A program made the position numbers and the translations under genes. The notes under the pieces are model-generated. The model saw only the letters and a list, made by a program, of their open reading frames with translations, was not told the DNA's origin and searched no databases. This document shows, in pieces, positions 8,496 to 41,706 of a stretch of DNA of 64,000 nt (position 1 is its first letter; the number at the start of each line of letters is the position of its first letter). The stretch is from Acidimicrobiaceae bacterium (GTDB lineage Bacteria > Actinomycetota > Acidimicrobiia > Acidimicrobiales > Poriferisodalaceae): positions 20,612 through 84,611 of the forward strand of contig PBHE01000002.1 of the NCBI GenBank assembly GCA_002719335.1. The letters run 5' to 3'.

Positions 8496-9278
8496 CTAGC
8501 TGTTTCCAAACCGTGGCGAACGTCCTTCTGTCAACGCCTTCATAGCTTCGCGGTGATCTGCTGATCGTGTCGTCGCCACGTGGTTTGCTTGGATTTTGTC
8601 GAGGTCCGGGTGGACTCCAGCCAGATCGTTAATCGCTTGCTTCGTCAATTTCACTGCGTCCGGCGCCAATTCAGAAATGGCCTTGCATAGCTCGACTACT
8701 CGAGAGTTCAAATGGTCTGGTTCGATGATTTCGGTGAGGTAGCCCATAGCAAGCAACTCATCAGCACTTATGGTCTCTCCTGTCAAGAAAATGCGTTTCG
8801 TTGCGGAAGGGCCGATACGTTCAACGAATCTTTGTAACCCTGTTGCGTAGTACTGAAGTCCTATTCGGGTGGCCGGCATCGCCAGGGCAATGTGACTCGT
8901 TGCCAACCGCATATCGCAGGCCAGAGCCAGGTCGGTACCTCCGCCGTGCACATTGCCGTTGATGATCGCAATCGTGGGCATTGCGACTTTCGCTAGAGCG
9001 TCGCACACTTCACCGAATCCGAACTTTGGTCGGTCTCCTTGTGCGAGGGCCCCTAGGTGATAGCCAGAGCACCAGGATGGGCCGTGAGCTTCGATCGTCA
9101 AACTACGTACCGTTGGGTCTGCCTCTACAGCCGCCAAATGAGCCATTACCGCCTCTAAGTCTGGGGGGCCCAAGCGGTTTCGTTTATCCGGCCTTCGAAG
9201 AACGATTTGAGCACGACTTTGGAGAATTTCGAGACTCGGCACATCTCCTTCACTGTTTGGTGTCATCGCTTTAATCAA
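8496..9278 (-). CDS. enoyl-CoA hydratase/isomerase (crotonase) family protein
   Basis: It is 260 aa with crotonase-like segments (IAIINGNVHGGGTDLALACDMRLA). It overlaps the upstream ADH stop. Confidence 0.8.
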   Translation of the reverse strand: MIKAMTPNSEGDVPSLEILQSRAQIVLRRPDKRNRLGPPDLEAVMAHLAAVEADPTVRSLTIEAHGPSWCSGYHLGALAQGDRPKFGFGEVCDALAKVAMPTIAIINGNVHGGGTDLALACDMRLATSHIALAMPATRIGLQYYATGLQRFVERIGPSATKRIFLTGETISADELLAMGYLTEIIEPDHLNSRVVELCKAISELAPDAVKLTKQAINDLAGVHPDLDKIQANHVATTRSADHREAMKALTEGRSPRFGNS

Positions 9279-10371
9279 ACACCAGTATTGATCGTCCCGC
9301 TACGCGGCCATTTTCTAGATCGTCAACCGCGCGTCCAATTTCGTCTATGGAATAGCGTTGAGTGACTAGGGCGTCGAGATCGAGAATGCCTTGACGGTGC
9401 CAATCAATGAATCTGGGCAAGTCCTCTCCCGGCGCACATGAACCGCCCAAACTGCAAATGTACGAACGTTCGCCGATAAACATGTGTCGACTGTCCAGTT
9501 CGATTGGAGTCTGCGGTACCCCTACCAGCACAGCGGTTCCACCTTTGGATTGCCCGAACTCGCCGCTGCGAGTCATTTCAGATATTTGTCGCATCGTGAC
9601 TGCGTGCCCGATGCAGTCGAACGCGTAGTCGACCCCAGCGATAGGTTGTCGCAGGACGTCGAACTGGCCGGCAACAGCGGTGAGGTCTCGCACAGCTGCA
9701 ACGGGATCGATCTGTGAAGCATTCACACCGTGAGTCGCTCCAAATTTTTTTGCAAAGTCAAGCTTGTCGTCATCCAAGTCGACAGCAATGATTGGATCTG
9801 CTCCGAGGTGCGCTGCAGCAGCTACTGCTGATAGGCCGACACCCCCGACTCCGATTATCGCGACGCTGTCGCCGCTTTGAACTTTTGCGGTATGTAGCAC
9901 CGCGCCGGCGCCAGTAATGACAGCACATCCGATGATGCTGCCAGCTTCGCGGTCAATGTCATCCGGGACCTTCACCACATACATCTCATCAGCGATGGTG
10001 TGTGTCGCCCAGGTAAAGACGTTGCTACTTGTCGCGGTCCGGCCATCGGGGAGATCGACAGTGGCGATACCTCCTTGGCGGCGAGCCTGGGTCTGATCTT
10101 TCGGCACCCAAGTCACCATGACGGTGTCTTCGAGTTGCAGATCTGCGACCGACGTTCCGACAGCAACAACTTGGCCTGTTGATTCGTGACCCAATACAAC
10201 GGGCGCCTGTCGAGGATTGTGAATTACGTGAAGTTGGCTGTGACATATTCCTGAAGCGAACTGTCGCACCACTACCTGGTGGGGTCCCGGATCAGGAAGG
10301 GCTAAGTCGACTATTTCTATCGGTTGATTCTGTTCTTGAGGGACAACCACCACTCGAGCGTCGGTCGGCAT
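9271..10371 (-). CDS. zinc-dependent alcohol dehydrogenase (MDR family)
   Basis: It has GICHSQLH, GHESTGQVVAVG and the Rossmann motif IIGVGGVGLSAV. Confidence 0.8.
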   Translation of the reverse strand: MPTDARVVVVPQEQNQPIEIVDLALPDPGPHQVVVRQFASGICHSQLHVIHNPRQAPVVLGHESTGQVVAVGTSVADLQLEDTVMVTWVPKDQTQARRQGGIATVDLPDGRTATSSNVFTWATHTIADEMYVVKVPDDIDREAGSIIGCAVITGAGAVLHTAKVQSGDSVAIIGVGGVGLSAVAAAAHLGADPIIAVDLDDDKLDFAKKFGATHGVNASQIDPVAAVRDLTAVAGQFDVLRQPIAGVDYAFDCIGHAVTMRQISEMTRSGEFGQSKGGTAVLVGVPQTPIELDSRHMFIGERSYICSLGGSCAPGEDLPRFIDWHRQGILDLDALVTQRYSIDEIGRAVDDLENGRVAGRSILVFD

Positions 10372-10440: not shown

Positions 10441-10911
10441 CTATGTCGAAAGTCGCAGGGGTCGACCATCAATGTCGGGTCGACTGTCCGTTGATAACCA
10501 TAGTTGCACTGGTTCAGCGTCGGGCCAGAGCTGGGCACGGACCATGGGTCGCGCATCTAGAGTTCCGCCTGTCGCGGCGTCGATCTGTCCCGAAAAGACG
10601 ATCTGGTTACCGTTCGAACATCCCAACACCGCCAAGGCTTGGGAAAGGTCGCCCAGATGTATGCCGATGCGCATCTTTCGACCCGGGTCGTTGATGTCAC
10701 GTTGAGTTCTCCACTGGGCAACCACGGCGGCTTCTACTGCATTTGCCGGATCGTCAAAGCACGCGACAAGCGCCGACTCGTGACTAACAATTAATGCCCC
10801 CTTGGCTTCGAAAATCTCTGTCGCTAGCTCAGTTGGTTCGACACTTTGAGGAATACCCACGATCTCGTAGTCGACACATACATATGTGAGGTTCCGCGTC
10901 ACTTGGTCCAT
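10441..10911 (-). CDS. hypothetical protein with weak, degenerate resemblance to a class III nucleotidyl-cyclase domain
   Basis: It is the only long ORF in this interval. The segments ACFDDPANAVEAAV and MRIGIHLGD recall the cyclase homology domain, but the catalytic residues look absent. Confidence 0.35.
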   Translation of the reverse strand: MDQVTRNLTYVCVDYEIVGIPQSVEPTELATEIFEAKGALIVSHESALVACFDDPANAVEAAVVAQWRTQRDINDPGRKMRIGIHLGDLSQALAVLGCSNGNQIVFSGQIDAATGGTLDARPMVRAQLWPDAEPVQLWLSTDSRPDIDGRPLRLST

Positions 10912-10940
10912 AAGGCATCTAAGGGGTTTCGAGACTCCAC

Positions 10941-11819
10941 CTATTTTGCTGGCGCGACGTCAGACAGGAACTTGAGTACTGCAGCGACAAAGATGTCATT
11001 GCGGTCACCTGCGACCATGTGAGCGGCGTCACTAACGTTTGAATATTCAGAATGGGGCACCAGTTTCAGGTAGGCGTCGGCGCCCTCTTCCGAAAGCACG
11101 TCGCTGAGTCCTCCCCGCACTAACAGAGATGGGCACTGAACATTTCTGGCGGCCTCTTCTTGACGGGGTATTCGATCCGCGATGGATCTTTTTCGCTGCA
11201 TAAATTCTGGATCCCAATGCCATCGATATCGGCCATCGGACCAAAGACGCACATTTTTTGCAAGGCCGTCGAGTGTGCGTGGTCGTTTTCGATGGGGTTG
11301 ATAGTTAGCGATCGCCTCAGCCACTTCATCAAGGGATGAAAATCCATCTGGTGCTTGGCGCATGAAGTCCCTGATTTTGCGGACACCAGCTACTTCAATG
11401 CGCGGCGCAGTGTCGACCAACACCAACGCGATTGCGTCGACACGTCCTTCACCCACCGCAGTGAGAGAAGTGCCGCCTCCCATTGAGGCCCCAACGAGAA
11501 TGGGTTGCTGCCCAAAGTGTTCAATGACTGCGACGAGGTCATCGACGAGCACGTCATTTGAGTAATCACCGTCAGGAGCCCATTCGCTGTCCCCGTGACC
11601 TCGGGCATCGAGACTGATAGCTCGGTAGCCGGCGTCGGCGAGCATCTGGCCAGCACTTTTCCATGCGTGACGCGTTTGCCCGCCACCGTGTTGCAGGATC
11701 ACGAGAGGACCTGAGTCGCCGTAAATATCGGCCGCAACGTGCACTCCGCCAGTTGCGGCGATCATCTTGTGCGGTTCTGGTGCACCCTCCAAGCGGATGC
11801 CCCGTTCACCCTCTGCCAC
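10941..11819 (-). CDS. alpha/beta-fold hydrolase
   Basis: It has HGGGQTRHAW...LDARGHGDSEW and the nucleophile elbow GASMGGG. A GTG start lies 3 nt after the GrdB-like stop. Confidence 0.8.
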   Translation of the reverse strand: MAEGERGIRLEGAPEPHKMIAATGGVHVAADIYGDSGPLVILQHGGGQTRHAWKSAGQMLADAGYRAISLDARGHGDSEWAPDGDYSNDVLVDDLVAVIEHFGQQPILVGASMGGGTSLTAVGEGRVDAIALVLVDTAPRIEVAGVRKIRDFMRQAPDGFSSLDEVAEAIANYQPHRKRPRTLDGLAKNVRLWSDGRYRWHWDPEFMQRKRSIADRIPRQEEAARNVQCPSLLVRGGLSDVLSEEGADAYLKLVPHSEYSNVSDAAHMVAGDRNDIFVAAVLKFLSDVAPAK

Positions 11820-11822
11820 TCG

Positions 11823-12728
11823 TCAACCCCTGCCCGTACCTTCGGCTTTAGCTGTTGCTTGAGCGGCGCGGCGCTCGTCTCCGGCGGCCGCGAGAGCCGT
11901 TCTGTTGGAGTCGTCAACCTTCATAAAATGCTGACGCCAATCATCATTGCAGTCGGCGTCCCACACGAAAGGGGTCTGCGCTGTCGTTCGGGGCTGCCAG
12001 GCACGTTCCAGGAGATCTAAGGCCATGCCAGTGATGGTTGTCTGCATCTCGACGTCTCCGGGCTTACCGGTCGGATTTCCTAGAGGAAAGTCGGTGAACA
12101 CGAATCGGCTTACTCCACATTCTTCAACAATGTCTCTTGCGCTTCCGACAACAACGGTAGGGAGGCCAGCTTCTTCAAGGTGTCGCGCAACCAGACTCAC
12201 GGTCTGGTGACATACGGGTCAGAGCGGGACTAGGACTACTGCGTCGAGTTCGTCTTGTTGAGCGAATTCAAGTATTTGCGGTGCGTCCCTGCGAGTGGTT
12301 CTTCTATGGCTGTAGTCAGTAGGCACTCCGTAGAAACGATCAGCGAGCGAGCCAATTCTGCCTTGGGCAGCAAATTCTCGTAGACGGTTGATCGGCAGGT
12401 ACGTGTCTAGGTCGTCGGTGTGGGTGTTGTCTTTATCCCAGAAGAGATCTTTGTTGTAGAGGCCTCCTAATGCGTCGCTACAAAGCGCTGCATATGGTTC
12501 CTTTGTGCCGGTGCCCGCGACACTTGTCTCGTTGATGTTCCGCTCGAAAAACGATGTAGTGACCAGTCCAATGCGGCACTTAGCGAGCGGTTTTTTAAGC
12601 GCTGCAAACGGAACGTCGTGGTGGTAAGCCCATTGGTAGGCCTGCGGGTAGCCCTGGGCTCCGTAGTAGCCGCGCGACTTGTCGATGTAACTGACATGCG
12701 AACGATGGGTGCGACGATCATCTGCCAT
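11823..12728 (-). CDS. GrdB/PrdB-family (reductase selenoprotein B-like) protein with in-frame TGA at 12219-12221, a candidate selenocysteine codon
   Basis: Track ORFs 12219..12728 and 11823..12200 share one frame and are separated by TGA plus 6 sense codons. The junction reads VLVPL-U-PVCHQTVSLVARHLEEAGLPTVVV, a UxxC motif as in the GrdB Sec region. A strong SD (GGGGGAG) precedes the ATG at 12728 only. A SECIS-like hairpin follows the TGA. Confidence 0.7.
12186..12212 (-). promoter_or_regulatory. candidate bacterial SECIS hairpin
   Basis: On the mRNA strand there is a 7-bp perfect stem ACCAGAC/GUCUGGU (12202-12208 with 12190-12196). The loop is CGUGA (12197-12201). A 3-bp lower stem lies beyond a 1x1 mismatch. 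The structure begins 6 nt after the UGA and the loop begins 17 nt after it, with G at loop position 2. Confidence 0.55.
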
Positions 12729-12833
12729 CGAACTCCCCCTTTATAGAGCAACGATTCGATGGTAGGCGGAGAATGGGGGTCTGCGCCTAATTAGCGGGCT
12801 ACGGTCACCGGAAGTAAAGCATCGGAGGATTCA

Positions 12834-13313
12834 ATGATTGGTGATCTACCGCCGAGGCCGCATCGTGGATGGACTTTCCACGAGGTTCCGATTGGAAAGC
12901 GTTGGAGCACTTCGAGGCGCACTATTACGGAAACAGATCTTGTCGTTTACGCCACCCAGTTCGGGTTTGTCGAAGGTTTGTTTCTTGACGCGACGGGTTC
13001 GGAGCGGGCCGGCTATTCGGGGCGTCTTGTACCTGGAAGTTTGGTGATGTCAATTGCGGAAGGGTTAGTCATCAGCGGAGGAGCGATCGCTGGCACCGGC
13101 ATGGCGTATTTAGGTGCCGAGGTACAAGTTAAAGGACCGACTTTTGTGAATGACACTCTCCAAGTCATCGCTGAAGTGACCGAGGCACGGCTTACTTCGA
13201 AACAAGATCGAGGAATTGTGACCACTCGCAACGAGGTGTTCAACCAGGATGGAGAAATAGTGATGGTGTACACCCCCACTCGAATGATCCGGGCAGAGCA
13301 CGTTGATGACTAG
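12834..13313 (+). CDS. MaoC-like (hot-dog fold) dehydratase
   Basis: It is 159 aa. The N-terminal pattern TITETDLVVYATQFGF and the size fit MaoC/(R)-hydratase-like proteins. The SD GGAGGA lies 5 nt upstream. Confidence 0.7.
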   Translation: MIGDLPPRPHRGWTFHEVPIGKRWSTSRRTITETDLVVYATQFGFVEGLFLDATGSERAGYSGRLVPGSLVMSIAEGLVISGGAIAGTGMAYLGAEVQVKGPTFVNDTLQVIAEVTEARLTSKQDRGIVTTRNEVFNQDGEIVMVYTPTRMIRAEHVDD

Positions 13314-13434: not shown

Positions 13435-14583
13435 GTGGAATCAAATATCGATGCAGGTCTAAATGAGAGTGATCTTGGAGCAGTTCAACGCGCGCAAGGT
13501 TGGGCACAAGATTTTGTTGCGCCTCGAGCTGAGTCTTGGGAAACAGAGCGGCGATTCGCGAGAGAAGCCTTCGACAGCGCGGGCCAGCATCGGCTTACCG
13601 GGCTACTTGTATCGTCTGCCGACGGCGGGGAAGACATCAGCGTTCTTGGATTGGCACGGGTGTTAGAAGAAATAGCCGCCGTCGACTTCGCTATCGCTTT
13701 CTCTTTGGTTTGCCATAACAACTTGGCCGGTGCGGTTGGGCGTGGGGCCACAGGGACGCTCCGCGAGAGTGTTCTACCCGGGCTGGTGGAGGGAAGTCTC
13801 GTGGGTGCGTTCTTGTTAACCGAGCCTGAAGTGGGATCTGACGCGGCGGCGATAGCAGTAACTGCGACTACCGATGGGAGTGAGTGGGTTCTCAACGGCG
13901 AGAAGGCGTGGGTTACCAATGGCACAGACGCTGATGTTCTCTCTGTTTACGCCCAGACAGACTCTTCCCTTGGCCACCGAGGCATCGCAACCTTTCTCAT
14001 CGACGCCAACACTTCTGGTGTAATTAAGACGCCAGGTTATGAACTGCTAGGTGGCCACGGGTTGGGCGCTAACAGCATACGTTTCGAAAACTGTAGGGTG
14101 CCGGCACAGTCCCTTTTCCAACCTGTTGGAGATGGCTTTCGTGCCGCTATGGAAGGAATTGATTTAGCTCGGGTGTTAGTGGGCGCCATGTGCTGTGGAA
14201 TGCTTCGAACCGGGCTGAGGACAGCCTCAAATTATGTGCGTGGTCGCCTAGCATTCGGAGGCCGCCTCGCTGATTTGCAGGGAGTCCGCTTCAAGCTTGC
14301 AGACGTCGCTACTGATCTTGAAGCATCCCGCCTTCTCACTTACCGCGCCGCTCTCACGCTGCAAGAGGGCCGTAACGCGGGGGTGGAAGCGGCACATGCA
14401 AAAAAATTCTCGACCCGTGTTACTGAGAACGGAATCGCTTCGTGCATGCAGGTCATGGGAGCAAACGGCGCTAAGAGAGACCACCCGCTTCCTCGTCATC
14501 TCGCCGCTGCTCGGTTGACCCATTACGTAGACGGCGCTACTGAGATCCAAGATGTCGTGATCAGTCGCTCCTTGCTTGACTGA
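13435..14583 (+). CDS. acyl-CoA dehydrogenase
   Basis: It is 382 aa. The segments FLLTEPEVGSDAAA, WVTNG and the C-terminal YVDGATEIQ are typical of ACADs. The start is GTG. Confidence 0.85.
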   Translation: MESNIDAGLNESDLGAVQRAQGWAQDFVAPRAESWETERRFAREAFDSAGQHRLTGLLVSSADGGEDISVLGLARVLEEIAAVDFAIAFSLVCHNNLAGAVGRGATGTLRESVLPGLVEGSLVGAFLLTEPEVGSDAAAIAVTATTDGSEWVLNGEKAWVTNGTDADVLSVYAQTDSSLGHRGIATFLIDANTSGVIKTPGYELLGGHGLGANSIRFENCRVPAQSLFQPVGDGFRAAMEGIDLARVLVGAMCCGMLRTGLRTASNYVRGRLAFGGRLADLQGVRFKLADVATDLEASRLLTYRAALTLQEGRNAGVEAAHAKKFSTRVTENGIASCMQVMGANGAKRDHPLPRHLAAARLTHYVDGATEIQDVVISRSLLD

Positions 14584-14600: not shown

Positions 14601-15866
14601 ATGAAATCTAATCGTGAAGGCAAGCCCGTCAGCGTCGACGAGGCGGTTAATGCGATCCCAAACCACGGTCGGGTATATGTGGCCCAGGGTTCAGGATGCC
14701 CATACGGGTTGTTGGTTGGAATAGATGACCGGCGTGAAATGTTCGAAAGTCTGGAGTTCGTTTCTGCGTTCCTGTTGCAACGGCCCGCGCCTATAGATCA
14801 TCTGGGCCAACCATTTCGATGGTTGACACTGCAAGCCACAGGCGCAATTCGCGACGTTCTTAACCATCCCTATTTCGGGATCGTTCCCGGCCGATATTCC
14901 GATCTCGACGGGATTTGCGCACCTGGCGGCCCATTGGCAGCAGACGTCGTAATTTGTCAGGTCAGTCCCCCAAATGGGAGTGGCGACTGCAGTTTGGGCA
15001 CGGGCGTAGGGGGTCACGTATCGCTTCTTGCGGAAGCGCCGTTGGTGATCGGACAAATCAACCGACAAATGCCTTATGTCCATGGTGACGGGGAATGCCA
15101 CATCGAGAACTTCGACTTCCTCGTGGAAATTGACGAACCTTTGTCCGAGCTTCAGCCCGCAACTATTGACCCTATCGCTGAGGCCATTGCGCAGCATGTA
15201 AGTCCTTTTATACCGGACGGTTCAACCCTTCAGTTCGGTATTGGCGCGGTGCCAGACGCCGTTCTATCCAGCTTAAGAACACGCAACAATCTCGGACTGC
15301 ATGGGGGAATGATTAACGATGCTTGTGTCGAACTTGTTGAGTGCGGCGCTATCAACAACCTTCACAAAGGGTGCGACGAAGGCGTTTCAGTAGCCGCCGA
15401 AATTATGGGAACGAAACGACTTTACGAATGGGTAGATCACAACCCGCGAGTTCGATTGGCACGCGGGGCGCACACTCATGGCATTCCGGGGATGGCATCG
15501 ATTCGAAATTTTGTGGCATTACAATCCACCGTCGAAATGGCTTTAGACGGTGCGGTCAACAGCGAGTTTGCTTCTGGCCGTTTTATTTCGGGCCCAGGAG
15601 GTGCTCCTGATTTCGCGTTTGGCGCTTCTATCGCTACCGGGGGCCGCTCAATAATGGCTATGCCGTCTACCGCCGCCAACGGCGCCGTTTCAAGAATTGT
15701 TCGTCGGCTAGCAGACGACGCGCCTACCACCCTGCCTAGCTATCTAGCCGATGTCGTCGTAACCGAATATGGAGCGGTCGAGTTGAGAGGGAAGACGCTC
15801 GCAGAACGAGCGGAGCTTCTCGCGAGTATCGCGCACCCAGACCATCAGACTTCTCTCGGTCAGTAA
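14601..15866 (+). CDS. acetyl-CoA hydrolase/transferase family protein (4-hydroxybutyrate CoA-transferase-like, family I)
   Basis: It has LQFGIGAVPDAV and the SGPGGAPDF motif, and is 421 aa. The SD AGGAG lies upstream. Confidence 0.75.
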   Translation: MKSNREGKPVSVDEAVNAIPNHGRVYVAQGSGCPYGLLVGIDDRREMFESLEFVSAFLLQRPAPIDHLGQPFRWLTLQATGAIRDVLNHPYFGIVPGRYSDLDGICAPGGPLAADVVICQVSPPNGSGDCSLGTGVGGHVSLLAEAPLVIGQINRQMPYVHGDGECHIENFDFLVEIDEPLSELQPATIDPIAEAIAQHVSPFIPDGSTLQFGIGAVPDAVLSSLRTRNNLGLHGGMINDACVELVECGAINNLHKGCDEGVSVAAEIMGTKRLYEWVDHNPRVRLARGAHTHGIPGMASIRNFVALQSTVEMALDGAVNSEFASGRFISGPGGAPDFAFGASIATGGRSIMAMPSTAANGAVSRIVRRLADDAPTTLPSYLADVVVTEYGAVELRGKTLAERAELLASIAHPDHQTSLGQ

Positions 15867-29629: not shown

Positions 29630-30253
29630 ATGGCAAAGAACATTGAATTTTGGGTCGACCCCATATGACCTTGGTGCTGGGTGACGGCCCGTTGGGTTGT
29701 CGACGAAGTAGCAGCAGAACGTGATCTGTCAATCACTTGGCAGCCGATCAGTCTCCTTTTCAAGAATGAGCCACCTAAGGATTCCCCGTACTACGAGAGC
29801 ACGGCTACCACGCACAACATGTTGAGGGTGATGGAGTCGGTACGGGCTGCTGGGAATGAAGACAAGGTTTTCGATCTCTACTGGGAGTTATCTAGCCGCA
29901 TCCACCACGACGGCGACAGAGACTTCGACATCCAAGAGGCGCTGCTCCAAGTCGGTCTAGACGACGCTCATTCGGCCGCTGCCGAGGACGAATCATGGGA
30001 CGCAGTGATCCGAGAACGGATGGATGCAGGTCTTGCCCTAGTGGGCAACGATGTTGGGACACCCATAATCGCCTGGGACCGAGCTGATGGCGAACGCGTC
30101 GGTTTGTTCGGGCCCGTCATCACTCGGGTTCCCAAGGGCGAAGACGCCCTCAAGCTTTGGGACGCAATGATGGCGATGGGCGATATAGACGGGTTTTGGG
30201 AACTGAAAAAAACTCGCACCGAACGACCAGAATTTGGGCAGCGTCCCGCGTGA
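29630..30253 (+). CDS. DsbA-like thiol reductase of the Rv2466c (mycothiol-dependent reductase) type, with in-frame TGA at 29666-29668 (candidate selenocysteine, U-P-W-C)
   Basis: The ATG at 29630 is in frame with track ORF 29681..30253. The translation reads MAKNIEFWVDPI-U-PWCWVTARWVV, matching the family N-terminus FWFDPxCPWCW. The C-terminal FGPVITRVPKGEDALKLWD...FWELKKTRTE also matches. No SD precedes the GTG at 29681. Confidence 0.7.
29682..29702 (+). promoter_or_regulatory. candidate bacterial SECIS hairpin
   Basis: UGACGGCCC (29682-29690) pairs with GGGUUGUCG (29694-29702), giving 9 bp of which 3 are G-U. The apical loop is GUU (29691-29693). The loop begins 22 nt after the UGA and starts with G-U. 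Confidence 0.45.
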
Positions 30254-34388: not shown

Positions 34389-35093
34389 TCAGCTATTAAC
34401 GGCCAAGCGGCGTTCGAGTTCTAGCCCTAGATAAAGAGGCAAGTCCTTCGAAGCTGCAATGCATCTGCGTAAATTCATCGCTACGTCAGGGTCAAGAAGC
34501 GCCAGCTCTGCCGCACGTCTCTCTGCAATATGGTCAAGTTCGGCAGGGTCGATCGCTTCGGCGACGATACCGAGTTCCATAGCGTCATCTATATCTAAGT
34601 TGCGACCCATGAGGACAATTGGAGCAGCGGCGTGAGGCCCAACTAATCGAGTGAGGGTTTGTGTCCCACCTGCTGCCGGGAGCATGCCTAATTTAGTTTC
34701 GGGCAGACCTAGAACCACATCCGTCGCAGCGATTCGCAGGTCGCACAACATTGCCATCTCAAGTCCCGAGCCAACCGCGTATCCCTTGAGTGCGACAACA
34801 GTAGGAATAGACAACCCAAGAAGAGGTAGCCAAGGGTCTCGATCCCATCGGATTCTCCGACCTTCGAAGATTGAAGAGGCAGAGCCGAATTCAGTGAGAT
34901 CTGCCCCGGCACTGAAGTGAGGGCCTTCGGCTCGAAGCAGCAGACATCGCGCGTCTGGATTGTCACGAACAGCGGCTATCGATTCGATGAGTCCGTCCCG
35001 CATTTCGAGGTCATAAACGTTCAGAGGTGGATTGCATATGAGGACGGTAGCTACGCCTTGATCAGAAAAGGAAAGAGTGACACGATCAGTCAT
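34389..35093 (-). CDS. enoyl-CoA hydratase/isomerase (crotonase) family protein
   Basis: It has FSAGADL and VALKGYAVGSGLEMAMLCDLRIA. The ATG at 35093 overlaps the upstream TGA (ATGA). Confidence 0.8.
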   Translation of the reverse strand: MTDRVTLSFSDQGVATVLICNPPLNVYDLEMRDGLIESIAAVRDNPDARCLLLRAEGPHFSAGADLTEFGSASSIFEGRRIRWDRDPWLPLLGLSIPTVVALKGYAVGSGLEMAMLCDLRIAATDVVLGLPETKLGMLPAAGGTQTLTRLVGPHAAAPIVLMGRNLDIDDAMELGIVAEAIDPAELDHIAERRAAELALLDPDVAMNLRRCIAASKDLPLYLGLELERRLAVNS

Positions 35094-36058
35094 GACGACC
35101 GCCTGAGACCGGCAACAGATCGATCCAATGACACCCGGCATTGTTTGGGCGCGTCACCTGCTAACTGAGCGAGGGCCGTGGCGCAGGCTTCGAGGCCGGC
35201 AAGGGGATCGGGATAAGAGAACGCTGGCGTTAATGGGCAACCGTCAACCCATCCCATTCCCGAGGCTGCGTGAACTCCCGTTCCATAGGCAACCCAATCG
35301 CTCTCGTTGCTGCCGGAAGCGAACGCTGTGATCGATAACAGCGCAAGATCAGGGTTCACGGCATGGAGGCGATCTGAGCTGATACCCAAATTCGCGTTAG
35401 CCCTCGGCGAGAGCGACGTTACGACTATGTCTGCAGAACGCAACAGCTGATGAAACTCGCCTCCCTCAGAGCAATAGCGGAGATCAATATCGGCAATCTC
35501 CTTCGACTTGTTCAGCTCGACAAACATTGGAGCGTTACCGGAGCCGTCATCACCGTCCCCGTACCGCAAACCATCTGGGCGGGACGATGGCTCGATCTTC
35601 ACAACTCTTGCACCCGCGAGCGCAAGCAGTTCCGTACAAAACGGTCCCGCCCACATCGAAGTCAAATCCACCACTCTCACGGTCCGGAGATCTATGCGGC
35701 GGCGGCAATTACCGAGATTATTAGATTGCTGAGGTAGTGGCTTTGACCGGTATGGGGTTACTGGGAGACGCCAAATTTGGGCTCTTTGGGCGACTGATTC
35801 AGGATCGACATCAGATTCAACGATGCCCGCGAAGGTCTCCCAGGTGGCCAGGTCATCGGGCCCTAAATCAAGGCAGAGATAGCCTTCCCCCCATCGGCAT
35901 GGAACTGGCGGTCGAGTTGGTTCATTCACAGCTCGCTCGGGAAGTTCTAACCAATAGTCGATCGCTCCTATAAATTGCTCACCCAACCGTCTCTCTATAG
36001 TTGCCGCAAGTTGCGCTCCTCGTTCGTACAGGCGGGGCGGAAGCCAATATCCGGTCAT
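35090..36058 (-). CDS. truncated/divergent family III CoA-transferase-like protein
   Basis: An unrecognised N-terminal segment of about 130 aa comes first. It is followed by VRVVDLTSMWAGPFCTELLALAGARVVKIEPS and about 190 aa of the CaiB large domain. The protein ends before the small domain. Confidence 0.6.
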   Translation of the reverse strand: MTGYWLPPRLYERGAQLAATIERRLGEQFIGAIDYWLELPERAVNEPTRPPVPCRWGEGYLCLDLGPDDLATWETFAGIVESDVDPESVAQRAQIWRLPVTPYRSKPLPQQSNNLGNCRRRIDLRTVRVVDLTSMWAGPFCTELLALAGARVVKIEPSSRPDGLRYGDGDDGSGNAPMFVELNKSKEIADIDLRYCSEGGEFHQLLRSADIVVTSLSPRANANLGISSDRLHAVNPDLALLSITAFASGSNESDWVAYGTGVHAASGMGWVDGCPLTPAFSYPDPLAGLEACATALAQLAGDAPKQCRVSLDRSVAGLRRSS

Positions 36059-40881: not shown

Positions 40882-41706
40882 ATGCAAAATCGTAGTTACG
40901 AAGAACGACATAAGGCTGCTCTAGAAGTCTTTGAGGCGTTTATGGGTGGCACTGTGGCGGAACCTGAGCGTGGCGCTCGTTCGTTCCAACGCCAGCATGG
41001 AGCATTGGGAAGCTTCGCTTTTGACGTTGTGATGGGAGATGTTTGGGCCCGTCCACAATTGAGCCGCCGTGACCGCAGCCTCATTGTCATTTCGGTACTT
41101 GCAACTATCGGCAGCACCGAGGAACTGTCGTTACATACGCAAGTGGGACTGAACAACGGCCTCTCACGCAGCGAAATTGAAGAAGCAGTTATCCACGTGG
41201 CGGCGTACGCGGGTTTCCCGATGGCTATGCAAGCCGGGCGAGTGGTCACCGATCGCTTCTGCCAGATTGATGGGGTCGATCGGTTACCGGAACGACAGGG
41301 AGCGGAACAGTTCGATGATTCCGAACGGCAAATCCGTGCACATGACGTCCGTAAGACCCTCACCGGAGGCCGGTGCGCCGACGACGCGGATCTCGACTTC
41401 GCCGCGATGGTGGAACATCTGGGCGATGTCGGCGTTATTGCATACCACTGGGCATTTGGTGATTTGTGGGCGCGCGACGAGTTAAGTCGTCGCGATCGCA
41501 GCCTGGTGGTAATCGCGATCCTGGCGGCATTAAGTCGCGTCGATGAACTGGCCTTTCATGTTCCTGCCGGACTGAACCATGGGCTTAGTCGCACGGAGAT
41601 CGAGGAGATCATGGTGCAAATGACTATTTACGGGGGGATTCCGCGCGCGGTGGAAGGGATTCAAGCCGCAAAAAGGGCGTTTCAAAAGATCGATGCTCGA
41701 AGCTAA
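40882..41706 (+). CDS. carboxymuconolactone decarboxylase (CMD/AhpD-like) family protein with two CMD domains
   Basis: The pattern GDVWARPQLSRRDRSLIVISVLA...GLSRSEIEEAVIHVAAYAGFP is repeated as GDLWARDELSRRDRSLVVIAILA...GLSRTEIEEIMVQMTIYGGIP. The SD GGAGGGG lies upstream. Confidence 0.8.
   Translation: MQNRSYEERHKAALEVFEAFMGGTVAEPERGARSFQRQHGALGSFAFDVVMGDVWARPQLSRRDRSLIVISVLATIGSTEELSLHTQVGLNNGLSRSEIEEAVIHVAAYAGFPMAMQAGRVVTDRFCQIDGVDRLPERQGAEQFDDSERQIRAHDVRKTLTGGRCADDADLDFAAMVEHLGDVGVIAYHWAFGDLWARDELSRRDRSLVVIAILAALSRVDELAFHVPAGLNHGLSRTEIEEIMVQMTIYGGIPRAVEGIQAAKRAFQKIDARS

Follow-up and report, generated by a model that had tools for sequence, protein, structure and literature searches.

The DNA analyzed here is a 64,000-nt stretch from an Acidimicrobiaceae bacterium (contig PBHE01000002.1; hereafter the window, to whose positions all coordinates refer), and its minus strand between 11,823 and 12,728 raises a simple question: are there two short genes at this place, or a single one whose in-frame TGA is read as selenocysteine (Sec)? 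The upstream open reading frame (ORF; 12219..12728, 169 aa) starts with ATG and the downstream one (11823..12200, 125 aa) with a supposed GTG. Both lie in one frame, with only the TGA at 12219-12221 and six sense codons between them, and the public assemblies examined all annotate them as two unrelated hypothetical ORFs of 169 aa and 125 aa. On read-through, the junction becomes ...ELDAVVLVPL-U-PVCHQTVSLVARHLEEAGLPTVVVG, the peptide across residue 170 being LVPL-U-PVCHQTVSLVAR, and the frame runs from the ATG at 12726-12728, through the UGA as codon 170, to the true stop TGA at 11823-11825. We found that this is one gene and not two. The profile of PrdB, the selenium subunit of clostridial D-proline reductase (TIGR04483), aligned to residues 41-248 across the TGA, and the layout of 169 plus 131 codons recurred in independent metagenome contigs. 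The supposed GTG start (12200-12198) has no Shine-Dalgarno sequence and is the GUG of a hairpin loop described below. The initial annotation of this DNA had already fused the two ORFs into one gene, and its coordinates and junction agreed with ours upon re-reading; one correction concerns the distance between the Shine-Dalgarno-like sequence and the ATG, which is 4 nt and not 5 nt. Collectively, the comparisons presented here make it very probable that the gene encodes a 301-residue selenoprotein of the GrdB/PrdB superfamily, with the hairpin acting as a selenocysteine insertion sequence (SECIS) and the product working as a stand-alone reductase-like enzyme.

The residue expected at the TGA was read from homologs. 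When 5.8 billion proteins were searched, 1,742 matches were obtained, and the column was inspected in the top 120. The closest matches (83-97% identity) were all 166-169 aa long, i.e., they ended at the TGA. Among the top 120, 113 proteins were full-length and 7 were truncated exactly at the TGA column; Cys was found at this position in 112 of the 113, within an invariant C-P-V-C-H-Q motif, and the Trp of the remaining one (P0025) is most simply a translation-table artefact. The DNA of the truncated relatives showed a TGA and then, if the contig extended far enough, an open frame that was exactly 131 codons long. Moreover, when the 80 loci from a scan of a genome collection were pooled with metagenome loci (L001-L009 being marine metagenome contigs), TGA was present at the column in 87 out of 87 loci containing the motif. 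These closest relatives belong to at least five phyla and include marine Acidimicrobiia 82-92% identical to the window protein (UWMA-0303, UBA2110, and MedAcidi-G3), the sponge-associated Ca. Poriferisodalis, Syntrophales and other Deltaproteobacteria, Myxococcota, Chloroflexota, and one metagenome-assembled genome of Pseudomonadota; the frames downstream of the TGA were intact, and the protein is under strong purifying selection. When representatives of 50%-identity clusters were searched, 2,673 relatives were retrieved at E <= 0.001, and a sequence-pattern count on the best 150 indicated that 17 end just before the column and 19 begin just after it. The UGA is, therefore, aligned with Cys in the homologs as a Sec/Cys pair. 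This is the outcome that the initial annotation had predicted for U, and the alignment with Cys-containing homologs that it had asked for was run with the conservation given above. We conclude that the internal TGA almost certainly encodes Sec, as judged from this column and from the hairpin that follows it.

Just downstream of the UGA, the mRNA can fold into a hairpin made of a 5' arm ACCAGAC (12208-12202), a loop CGUGA (12201-12197), and a 3' arm GUCUGGU (12196-12190), which constitutes the core of the minimum-free-energy (MFE) fold of a 76-nt stretch. The loop begins 17 nt past the UGA and has G-U at its positions 2-3. For the bacterial SECIS (bSECIS), the published consensus describes a loop of 3-9 nt, an upper stem of 4-16 bp, G at loop position 1 or 2, in most cases with G or U after it, a UGA-to-loop distance of 16-37 nt, and an MFE <= -7.5 kcal/mol (PMC13188914, Fig. 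2). The window hairpin agrees with all four criteria (7 bp, CGUGA, spacing of 17 nt, and -9.1 kcal/mol). It also resembles the canonical bacterial element of the E. coli fdhF type in being a stem-loop inside the coding sequence just 3' of the UGA, with a 5-nt apical loop, a 7-bp upper stem, and 17-nt spacing; a bulged U was not identified in the window hairpin. The stem, loop, spacing, and loop G were read exactly as first described. The 3-bp lower stem proposed along with them, 12210-12212 with 12186-12188, was indeed seen in the MFE fold, and its pairs 11-35 and 12-34 were mostly kept in relatives; however, two of the three pairs are G-U, and since the pairs are fixed by Cys and Ala codons, this part of the proposal gives no independent support.

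To separate a selected RNA from a by-product of the peptide, Cys-form genes coding for the same HQTVSLV peptide (115 unique sequences from a metagenome pattern scan) were taken as the control for 83 unique Sec-form sequences. The AGT:AGC ratio for Ser was 64:4 among Sec forms but 9:67 among Cys forms (Fisher p=8e-26, a value inflated by phylogeny, as explained below), Leu was CTG in 95% of Sec forms versus 50% of Cys forms, and Val was GTG in 90% versus 17%. The synonymous sites flanking the hairpin were scrambled in both groups. The full set of 7 stem pairs was found in 62/83 Sec forms and in 2/115 Cys forms; all bSECIS criteria were passed by 57/83 and 11/115, respectively, and only 2 of those Cys forms did so at a spacing of 17. 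In the Sec alignment, 94% of cells were paired, as compared to 16-32% in slid controls, with 0/500 shuffles as good, and three stem pairs had changed on both sides (C-G to U-A, A-U to U-A, and G-C to A-U). For the 16 sequences of the clade that contains the window gene, synonymous differences averaged 0.095 over the seven hairpin codons versus 0.45 over the gene as a whole, and when 294 sliding windows were ranked by synonymous variation, the lowest five all overlapped the hairpin. These comparisons indicate that the hairpin is selected as RNA only in the TGA forms and is not a peptide by-product, so the earlier suggestion that it fits the bacterial SECIS consensus was borne out. The comparison of hairpin codons between Sec and Cys forms is, in addition, a clean and reusable way of validating a SECIS that needs no covariance model.

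Two departures from the common hairpin were observed among the relatives. In three Thermodesulfobacteriota/Deltaproteobacteria loci (L038, L039, and L040), the hairpin had moved about 5 nt downstream, to about 19-33 nt after the TGA, in the form of CCGUC-AGUCU-GACGG or CCGUG-AGUCU-CACGG, with a compensatory swap of C-G to G-C between versions, apparently a different way of fitting a SECIS over the same peptide. In an Acidimicrobiia subclade with HQSVSLG (L052, L058, L059, L061, L064, L082, and L084), the TGA is kept, but pair 19-27 is a U-C or U-U mismatch that weakens the stem, and these loci fail the strict bSECIS energy test; L062 of the same group restores the pair as U-A.

Several results weigh against a Sec codon served by this hairpin. 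The folding energy of the 76-nt stretch was no better than that of shuffled sequences (z = +0.53); thus, thermodynamics alone carries no weight, and the support for the hairpin is the comparative data. Rfam returned no SECIS family from the whole window at gathering thresholds and only chance snoRNA matches, with no SECIS family, from 12050-12350 at E up to 10. The Sec and Cys forms are essentially two clades, with a minimum of 2 switches in 173 taxa, and the codon contrast is, therefore, phylogenetically confounded; the scrambled flanks and the within-clade synonymous dip do not share this weakness. As for the machinery, the 64-kb window contained no tRNA, selA, selB, selD, or tRNA-Sec, none of the 60 related loci scanned for a tRNA-Sec had one, and E. 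coli SelA, SelB, and SelD, used as tblastn queries on the window and the related loci (about 20 kb of each related genome), had a selD in L073 as their only hit. This selD homolog (10460-11509, 42% identical to E. coli SelD) is about 7 kb downstream of a deltaproteobacterial PrdB-like Sec gene and is the sole Sec-machinery gene seen in any related locus. The window was also scanned for another TGA-interrupted gene and none was found; the only other candidate was the selenoprotein's own stop, which is in frame with the ORF of the adjacent hydrolase and is followed by a weak hairpin (11819-11825). We rejected it as a second recoding site, because the frame offset differs in relatives (400 vs 402).

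To place the protein within known families, U was replaced by C in the query, which was then compared with NCBIfam and Pfam models with curated cut-offs. The best match was TIGR04483 (E=4.6e-24, profile positions 20-226 of 238), in an alignment that spans codon 170, and the score was 85.2 bits, far from the equivalog cut-off of 300 bits. The GrdH, GrdF, and GrdB models aligned through their C-terminal halves (GrdB profile 180-431), with scores below the cut-offs for TIGR01918 (41.7 vs 65.5 bits), TIGR01917 (37.1 vs 602 bits), and Pfam GRDB (PF07355; 19.7 vs 22 bits, E=6e-4). The last match covered residues 101-167 on profile positions 279-345 of 347, placing U170 three residues past its end, which we take to be the same place that Sec has in GrdB. 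Among the family members compared with TIGR04483, 30/30 matched, with a best E=7e-38, and all were far below the cut-off. Since every curated score fell below its cut-off and the homologs behaved likewise, we assign the protein, on its sequence, to the GrdB/PrdB superfamily as a distinct subfamily that no curated model covers. A side observation concerns Pfam itself: PF07355 matches always ended at profile positions 344-345 of 347, three residues before the Sec/Cys column of the window protein, and it may be that the sequences behind the model were themselves cut off at the Sec codon.

The likeness to PrdB includes a near full-length alignment, the UxxC motif, and probably, by analogy, the chemistry of a selenolate nucleophile with a resolving Cys. 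The window protein is about 40 residues longer than PrdB at the N-terminus and about 50 longer at the C-terminus, and it has no PrdA pyruvoyl partner or PrdC/D/E nearby; while PrdB hosts are Stickland fermenters, the window host is, to judge from gene content, an aerobic marine actinobacterium. Regarding GrdB, GrdF, and GrdH, the protein is homologous to their C-terminal ~250 residues, but with 301 aa it lacks the N-terminal half of GrdB (~430 aa), its U-P-V-C-H-Q-T has no third Cys when compared to the UxxCxxC of GrdB, and no GrdA, GrdE, GrdC, or GrdD is encoded close to it.

The alternative that best survives is that the protein is a true PrdB, i.e., the selenium subunit of D-proline reductase, with its PrdA partner encoded elsewhere in the genome, and we consider this unlikely. 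It would account for PrdB being the best-scoring curated model, for the family members too, for the U-P-V-C form of the UxxC motif, and for the label 'proline reductase PrdB' that the family carries in the literature; the 85 bits against an equivalog cut-off of 300 bits, and a best E=7e-38 for the whole family, argue otherwise. In clostridia, the prd genes are clustered. The window gene was not encoded with PrdA or other prd genes, nor was it clustered in the window with grdA, grdE, grdC, grdD, or trxA/trxB: of the 61 ORFs of at least 90 aa in the window, 57 proteins were scanned against Pfam, and none belonged to the PrdA/GrdE, GrdA, GrdC/D, or thioredoxin-reductase families. In agreement, no PrdA or Grd partner was recognized among the recurrent or inspected neighbors at about 200 related loci from many phyla, where the neighbor clusters were Pfam-scanned in part; the absence of grdA/C/D/E and prdA partners noticed by the initial annotation thus extends beyond the window. 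The hosts, to judge from their gene content, would be aerobic marine heterotrophs, which also speaks against a true PrdB. Because no PrdA, GrdE, GrdA, or GrdC/D is nearby and the curated models failed, we read the protein as not being the B subunit of a D-proline or glycine reductase complex.

This family has been seen before. In the Sargasso Sea, a UxxC 'proline reductase PrdB' ranked third in abundance among selenoprotein families, with 42 genes (PMC1088965; Zhang, Fomenko & Gladyshev 2005), and 'PrdB' was among the top families in data from Global Ocean Sampling (GOS), where its pfam07355-related sequences numbered 235 with Sec and 110 with Cys (PMC2398784; Zhang & Gladyshev 2008). The window gene has in common with these the UxxC Sec motif, a weak relationship to pfam07355, abundance in marine metagenomes, the existence of Cys homologs beside the Sec forms, and a SECIS whose small apical loop contains G; hence, matched against the published description, it almost certainly belongs to the same family. 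The novelty implied by the initial annotation was overstated, as surveys of marine metagenomes have listed the family since 2005 (PMC1088965, PMC2398784). Those papers catalogue it and take the PrdB function as given, and reviews still place it under D-proline reductase (PMC9312934, PMC13188914). We found no discussion of the missing PrdA in the literature. What is added here to the Sargasso and GOS papers is the Acidimicrobiia host, the missing PrdA, the failed PrdB and GrdB cut-offs, and a quantified test of the hairpin in Sec versus Cys forms. The name 'proline reductase PrdB' is probably wrong for the family, because the curated models failed and the gene was never found with PrdA. There is also a practical consequence: the two-ORF annotation removes an abundant marine selenoprotein from the annotations of Acidimicrobiia, Syntrophales, Myxococcota, and Chloroflexota, and drops the family from estimates of microbial selenium demand.

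A very unlikely explanation is that the UGA is read through with no selenium, either by a near-cognate Cys or Trp tRNA or by local recoding stimulated by the hairpin. Hairpins 3' of stop codons can promote read-through, a Trp stands at the column in P0025, and the Sec machinery was not found in the window or, apart from the selD of L073, in the related loci. On the other hand, the hairpin has the geometry of a SelB-type bSECIS, including the loop G-U and the 17-nt spacing, the P0025 residue has the simpler explanation given above, and others have classed the family as a selenoprotein (PMC1088965, PMC2398784). TGA is, moreover, the commonest ordinary stop in the window (26/57), indicating that the genetic code is standard and TGA is not reassigned, so that it acts as a normal stop elsewhere in the same DNA. 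More improbable still is a split gene, in which translation would stop at the TGA and the 125-aa C-terminal chain would be made separately from the GTG at 12200, giving two chains with no Sec. All gene callers behind the public assemblies divide the gene in this way, and the failure to find Sec machinery fits it equally; but the split would delete a residue invariant in 112/113 full-length homologs, its start codon would be one with no Shine-Dalgarno sequence inside a hairpin loop, the frame and spacing over the junction are conserved across several phyla, and it leaves unexplained why the TGA forms alone hold the rare synonymous codons that build the hairpin. Finally, one in-frame stop in one window, taken alone, could reflect a pseudogene or a sequencing or assembly error for TGC/TGT, an option that is effectively refuted by finding this TGA in 87 independent assemblies, which come from different studies and phyla and in which the downstream frames are intact and the protein is under strong purifying selection.

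With Sec at residue 170 as the preferred reading, a tentative scheme for the function can be drawn. The SECIS, 17 nt past the UGA, would recruit SelB with Sec-tRNA(Sec), and Sec would be inserted at this codon instead of chain termination. By analogy with PrdB and GrdB, the selenolate of U170 could be the attacking nucleophile, Cys173 would then resolve the intermediate into a selenenylsulfide, and a dithiol system of the thioredoxin or mycoredoxin type would re-reduce it. The chemistry is drawn wholly from analogy, since no relative has a solved structure, and this counts against the scheme: a sequence search of the PDB found none for any relative. In an AlphaFold2 (AF2) model of the nearest Cys homolog, P0003 (a confident model, pLDDT 88), the CPVC motif is predicted where strand 170-174 meets helix 178-193, and a strand-to-helix junction is the usual setting for a redox CxxC. 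A Foldseek comparison of this model with the PDB yielded generic Rossmann- or flavodoxin-like folds and no relative at a significant level. The enzyme would thus be a stand-alone one of the reductase type, in an operon with a hydrolase, a 156-aa protein, and an alcohol dehydrogenase, beside genes of coenzyme A (CoA)-ester metabolism.

The features of the locus are collected in Table 1. The hydrolase ORF follows the selenoprotein gene on the same strand, with no terminator-like site between them on the minus strand, and the two are probably in the same operon; the 156-aa protein, the alcohol dehydrogenase, and a hydratase come next in the same orientation. The hydrolase was found downstream in 21 Sec loci, all from Acidimicrobiia, so the linkage reported initially is real but confined to this class. 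Likewise, the arrangement of hydrolase, 156-aa protein, alcohol dehydrogenase, and same-strand hydratase, and the divergent MaoC-like hydratase, acyl-CoA dehydrogenase, and CoA-transferase, recurred in 13-21 loci and in Acidimicrobiia only. No neighbor was conserved family-wide across the ~200 related loci.

Table 1. Coordinates of the selenoprotein gene, its elements, and its neighbors in the 64,000-nt window.
Feature	Position	Strand	Description and basis
Complete selenoprotein gene (predicted)	11823..12728	minus	301 codons, GrdB/PrdB-superfamily protein; sequence and translation
In-frame UGA, almost certainly read as selenocysteine (U170)	12219..12221	minus	Cys column in homologs, TGA in relatives
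U-P-V-C putative redox motif (U170, C173)	12210..12221	minus	Part of invariant [U/C]-P-V-C-H-Q; invariant alignment columns
Shine-Dalgarno-like AGGGGGAG	12733..12740	minus	4 nt upstream of ATG; read directly in sequence
bSECIS upper stem-loop (predicted)	12190..12208	minus	7-bp stem, 5-nt loop, 17 nt from UGA, dG -9.1 kcal/mol
Hairpin including possible 3-bp lower stem	12186..12212	minus	UGU/GCG, two G-U pairs, 1x1 mismatch below upper stem; MFE fold
alpha/beta-hydrolase	10941..11819	minus	Abhydrolase_1 E=3e-23; ORF starts 3 nt after selenoprotein stop
Conserved 156-aa protein	10441..10911	minus	No Pfam/NCBIfam match; clade-specific cluster (cluster 8, 13 loci)
Zn-dependent alcohol dehydrogenase	9271..10371	minus	Clade-specific cluster (cluster 9, 13 loci)
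MaoC-like (R)-hydratase, divergent	12834..13313	plus	Clusters 4, 3, and 10 (this and next two genes) in 13-20 loci
Acyl-CoA dehydrogenase	13435-14583		After MaoC-like hydratase
CoA-transferase	14601-15866		After acyl-CoA dehydrogenase

Gene fusions offer a further lead. An AMP-binding enzyme of the acyl-CoA-ligase type was fused to a Cys-form PrdB-like domain in three independent clusters, P0123, P0125 (L212 363-2780), and P0126, which points to a link with carboxylate or CoA-ester metabolism as a lead to follow. A separate acyl-CoA ligase gene was within 8 kb in only 8/208 loci, so for the family as a whole this lead is weak. From the hints of the ligase fusions and of the Acidimicrobiia operon with hydrolase, alcohol dehydrogenase, and hydratases, it is possible, though rather doubtful, that the marine 'PrdB' selenoproteins are not proline-reductase subunits but a stand-alone Sec/Cys family with a chemistry of its own that, in aerobic heterotrophs, is tied to the activation of carboxylates and the catabolism of CoA esters. 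If true, one of the most common selenoprotein families of the ocean would have a new selenoenzyme activity. Another fusion was noted in P0135, where a Ser/Thr protein kinase domain is N-terminal on a PrdB-like protein.

Two thiol-redox proteins are encoded in the window, an Rv2466c-like mycothiol-dependent (DsbA-like) oxidoreductase (29681-30253, plus strand) and a double CMD/AhpD-like protein (40882-41706, plus strand); they could be candidate reductants, with nothing linking them to the selenoprotein. The window as a whole (1-64000, GC 55%) forms a densely packed catabolic island in a marine Acidimicrobiia genome: five of its genes are for family-III CoA-transferases, among them two of double length (759 and 825 aa), and it also encodes five enoyl-CoA hydratases, three acyl-CoA dehydrogenases, several short-chain dehydrogenases/reductases, and four amidohydrolases. 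A CoA_transf_3 ORF (35090-36058, minus strand) matched the first half of the profile only (1-181 of 366) and overlaps the start of a hydratase ORF (34389-35141, minus strand), and it may be a truncated or frameshifted gene. Between 53900 and 62730, we observed a meta-cleavage cluster of the 4-hydroxyphenylacetate type, composed of an HpaB hydroxylase, an IclR regulator, a CHMI isomerase, an aldehyde dehydrogenase, and FAA-family hydrolases.

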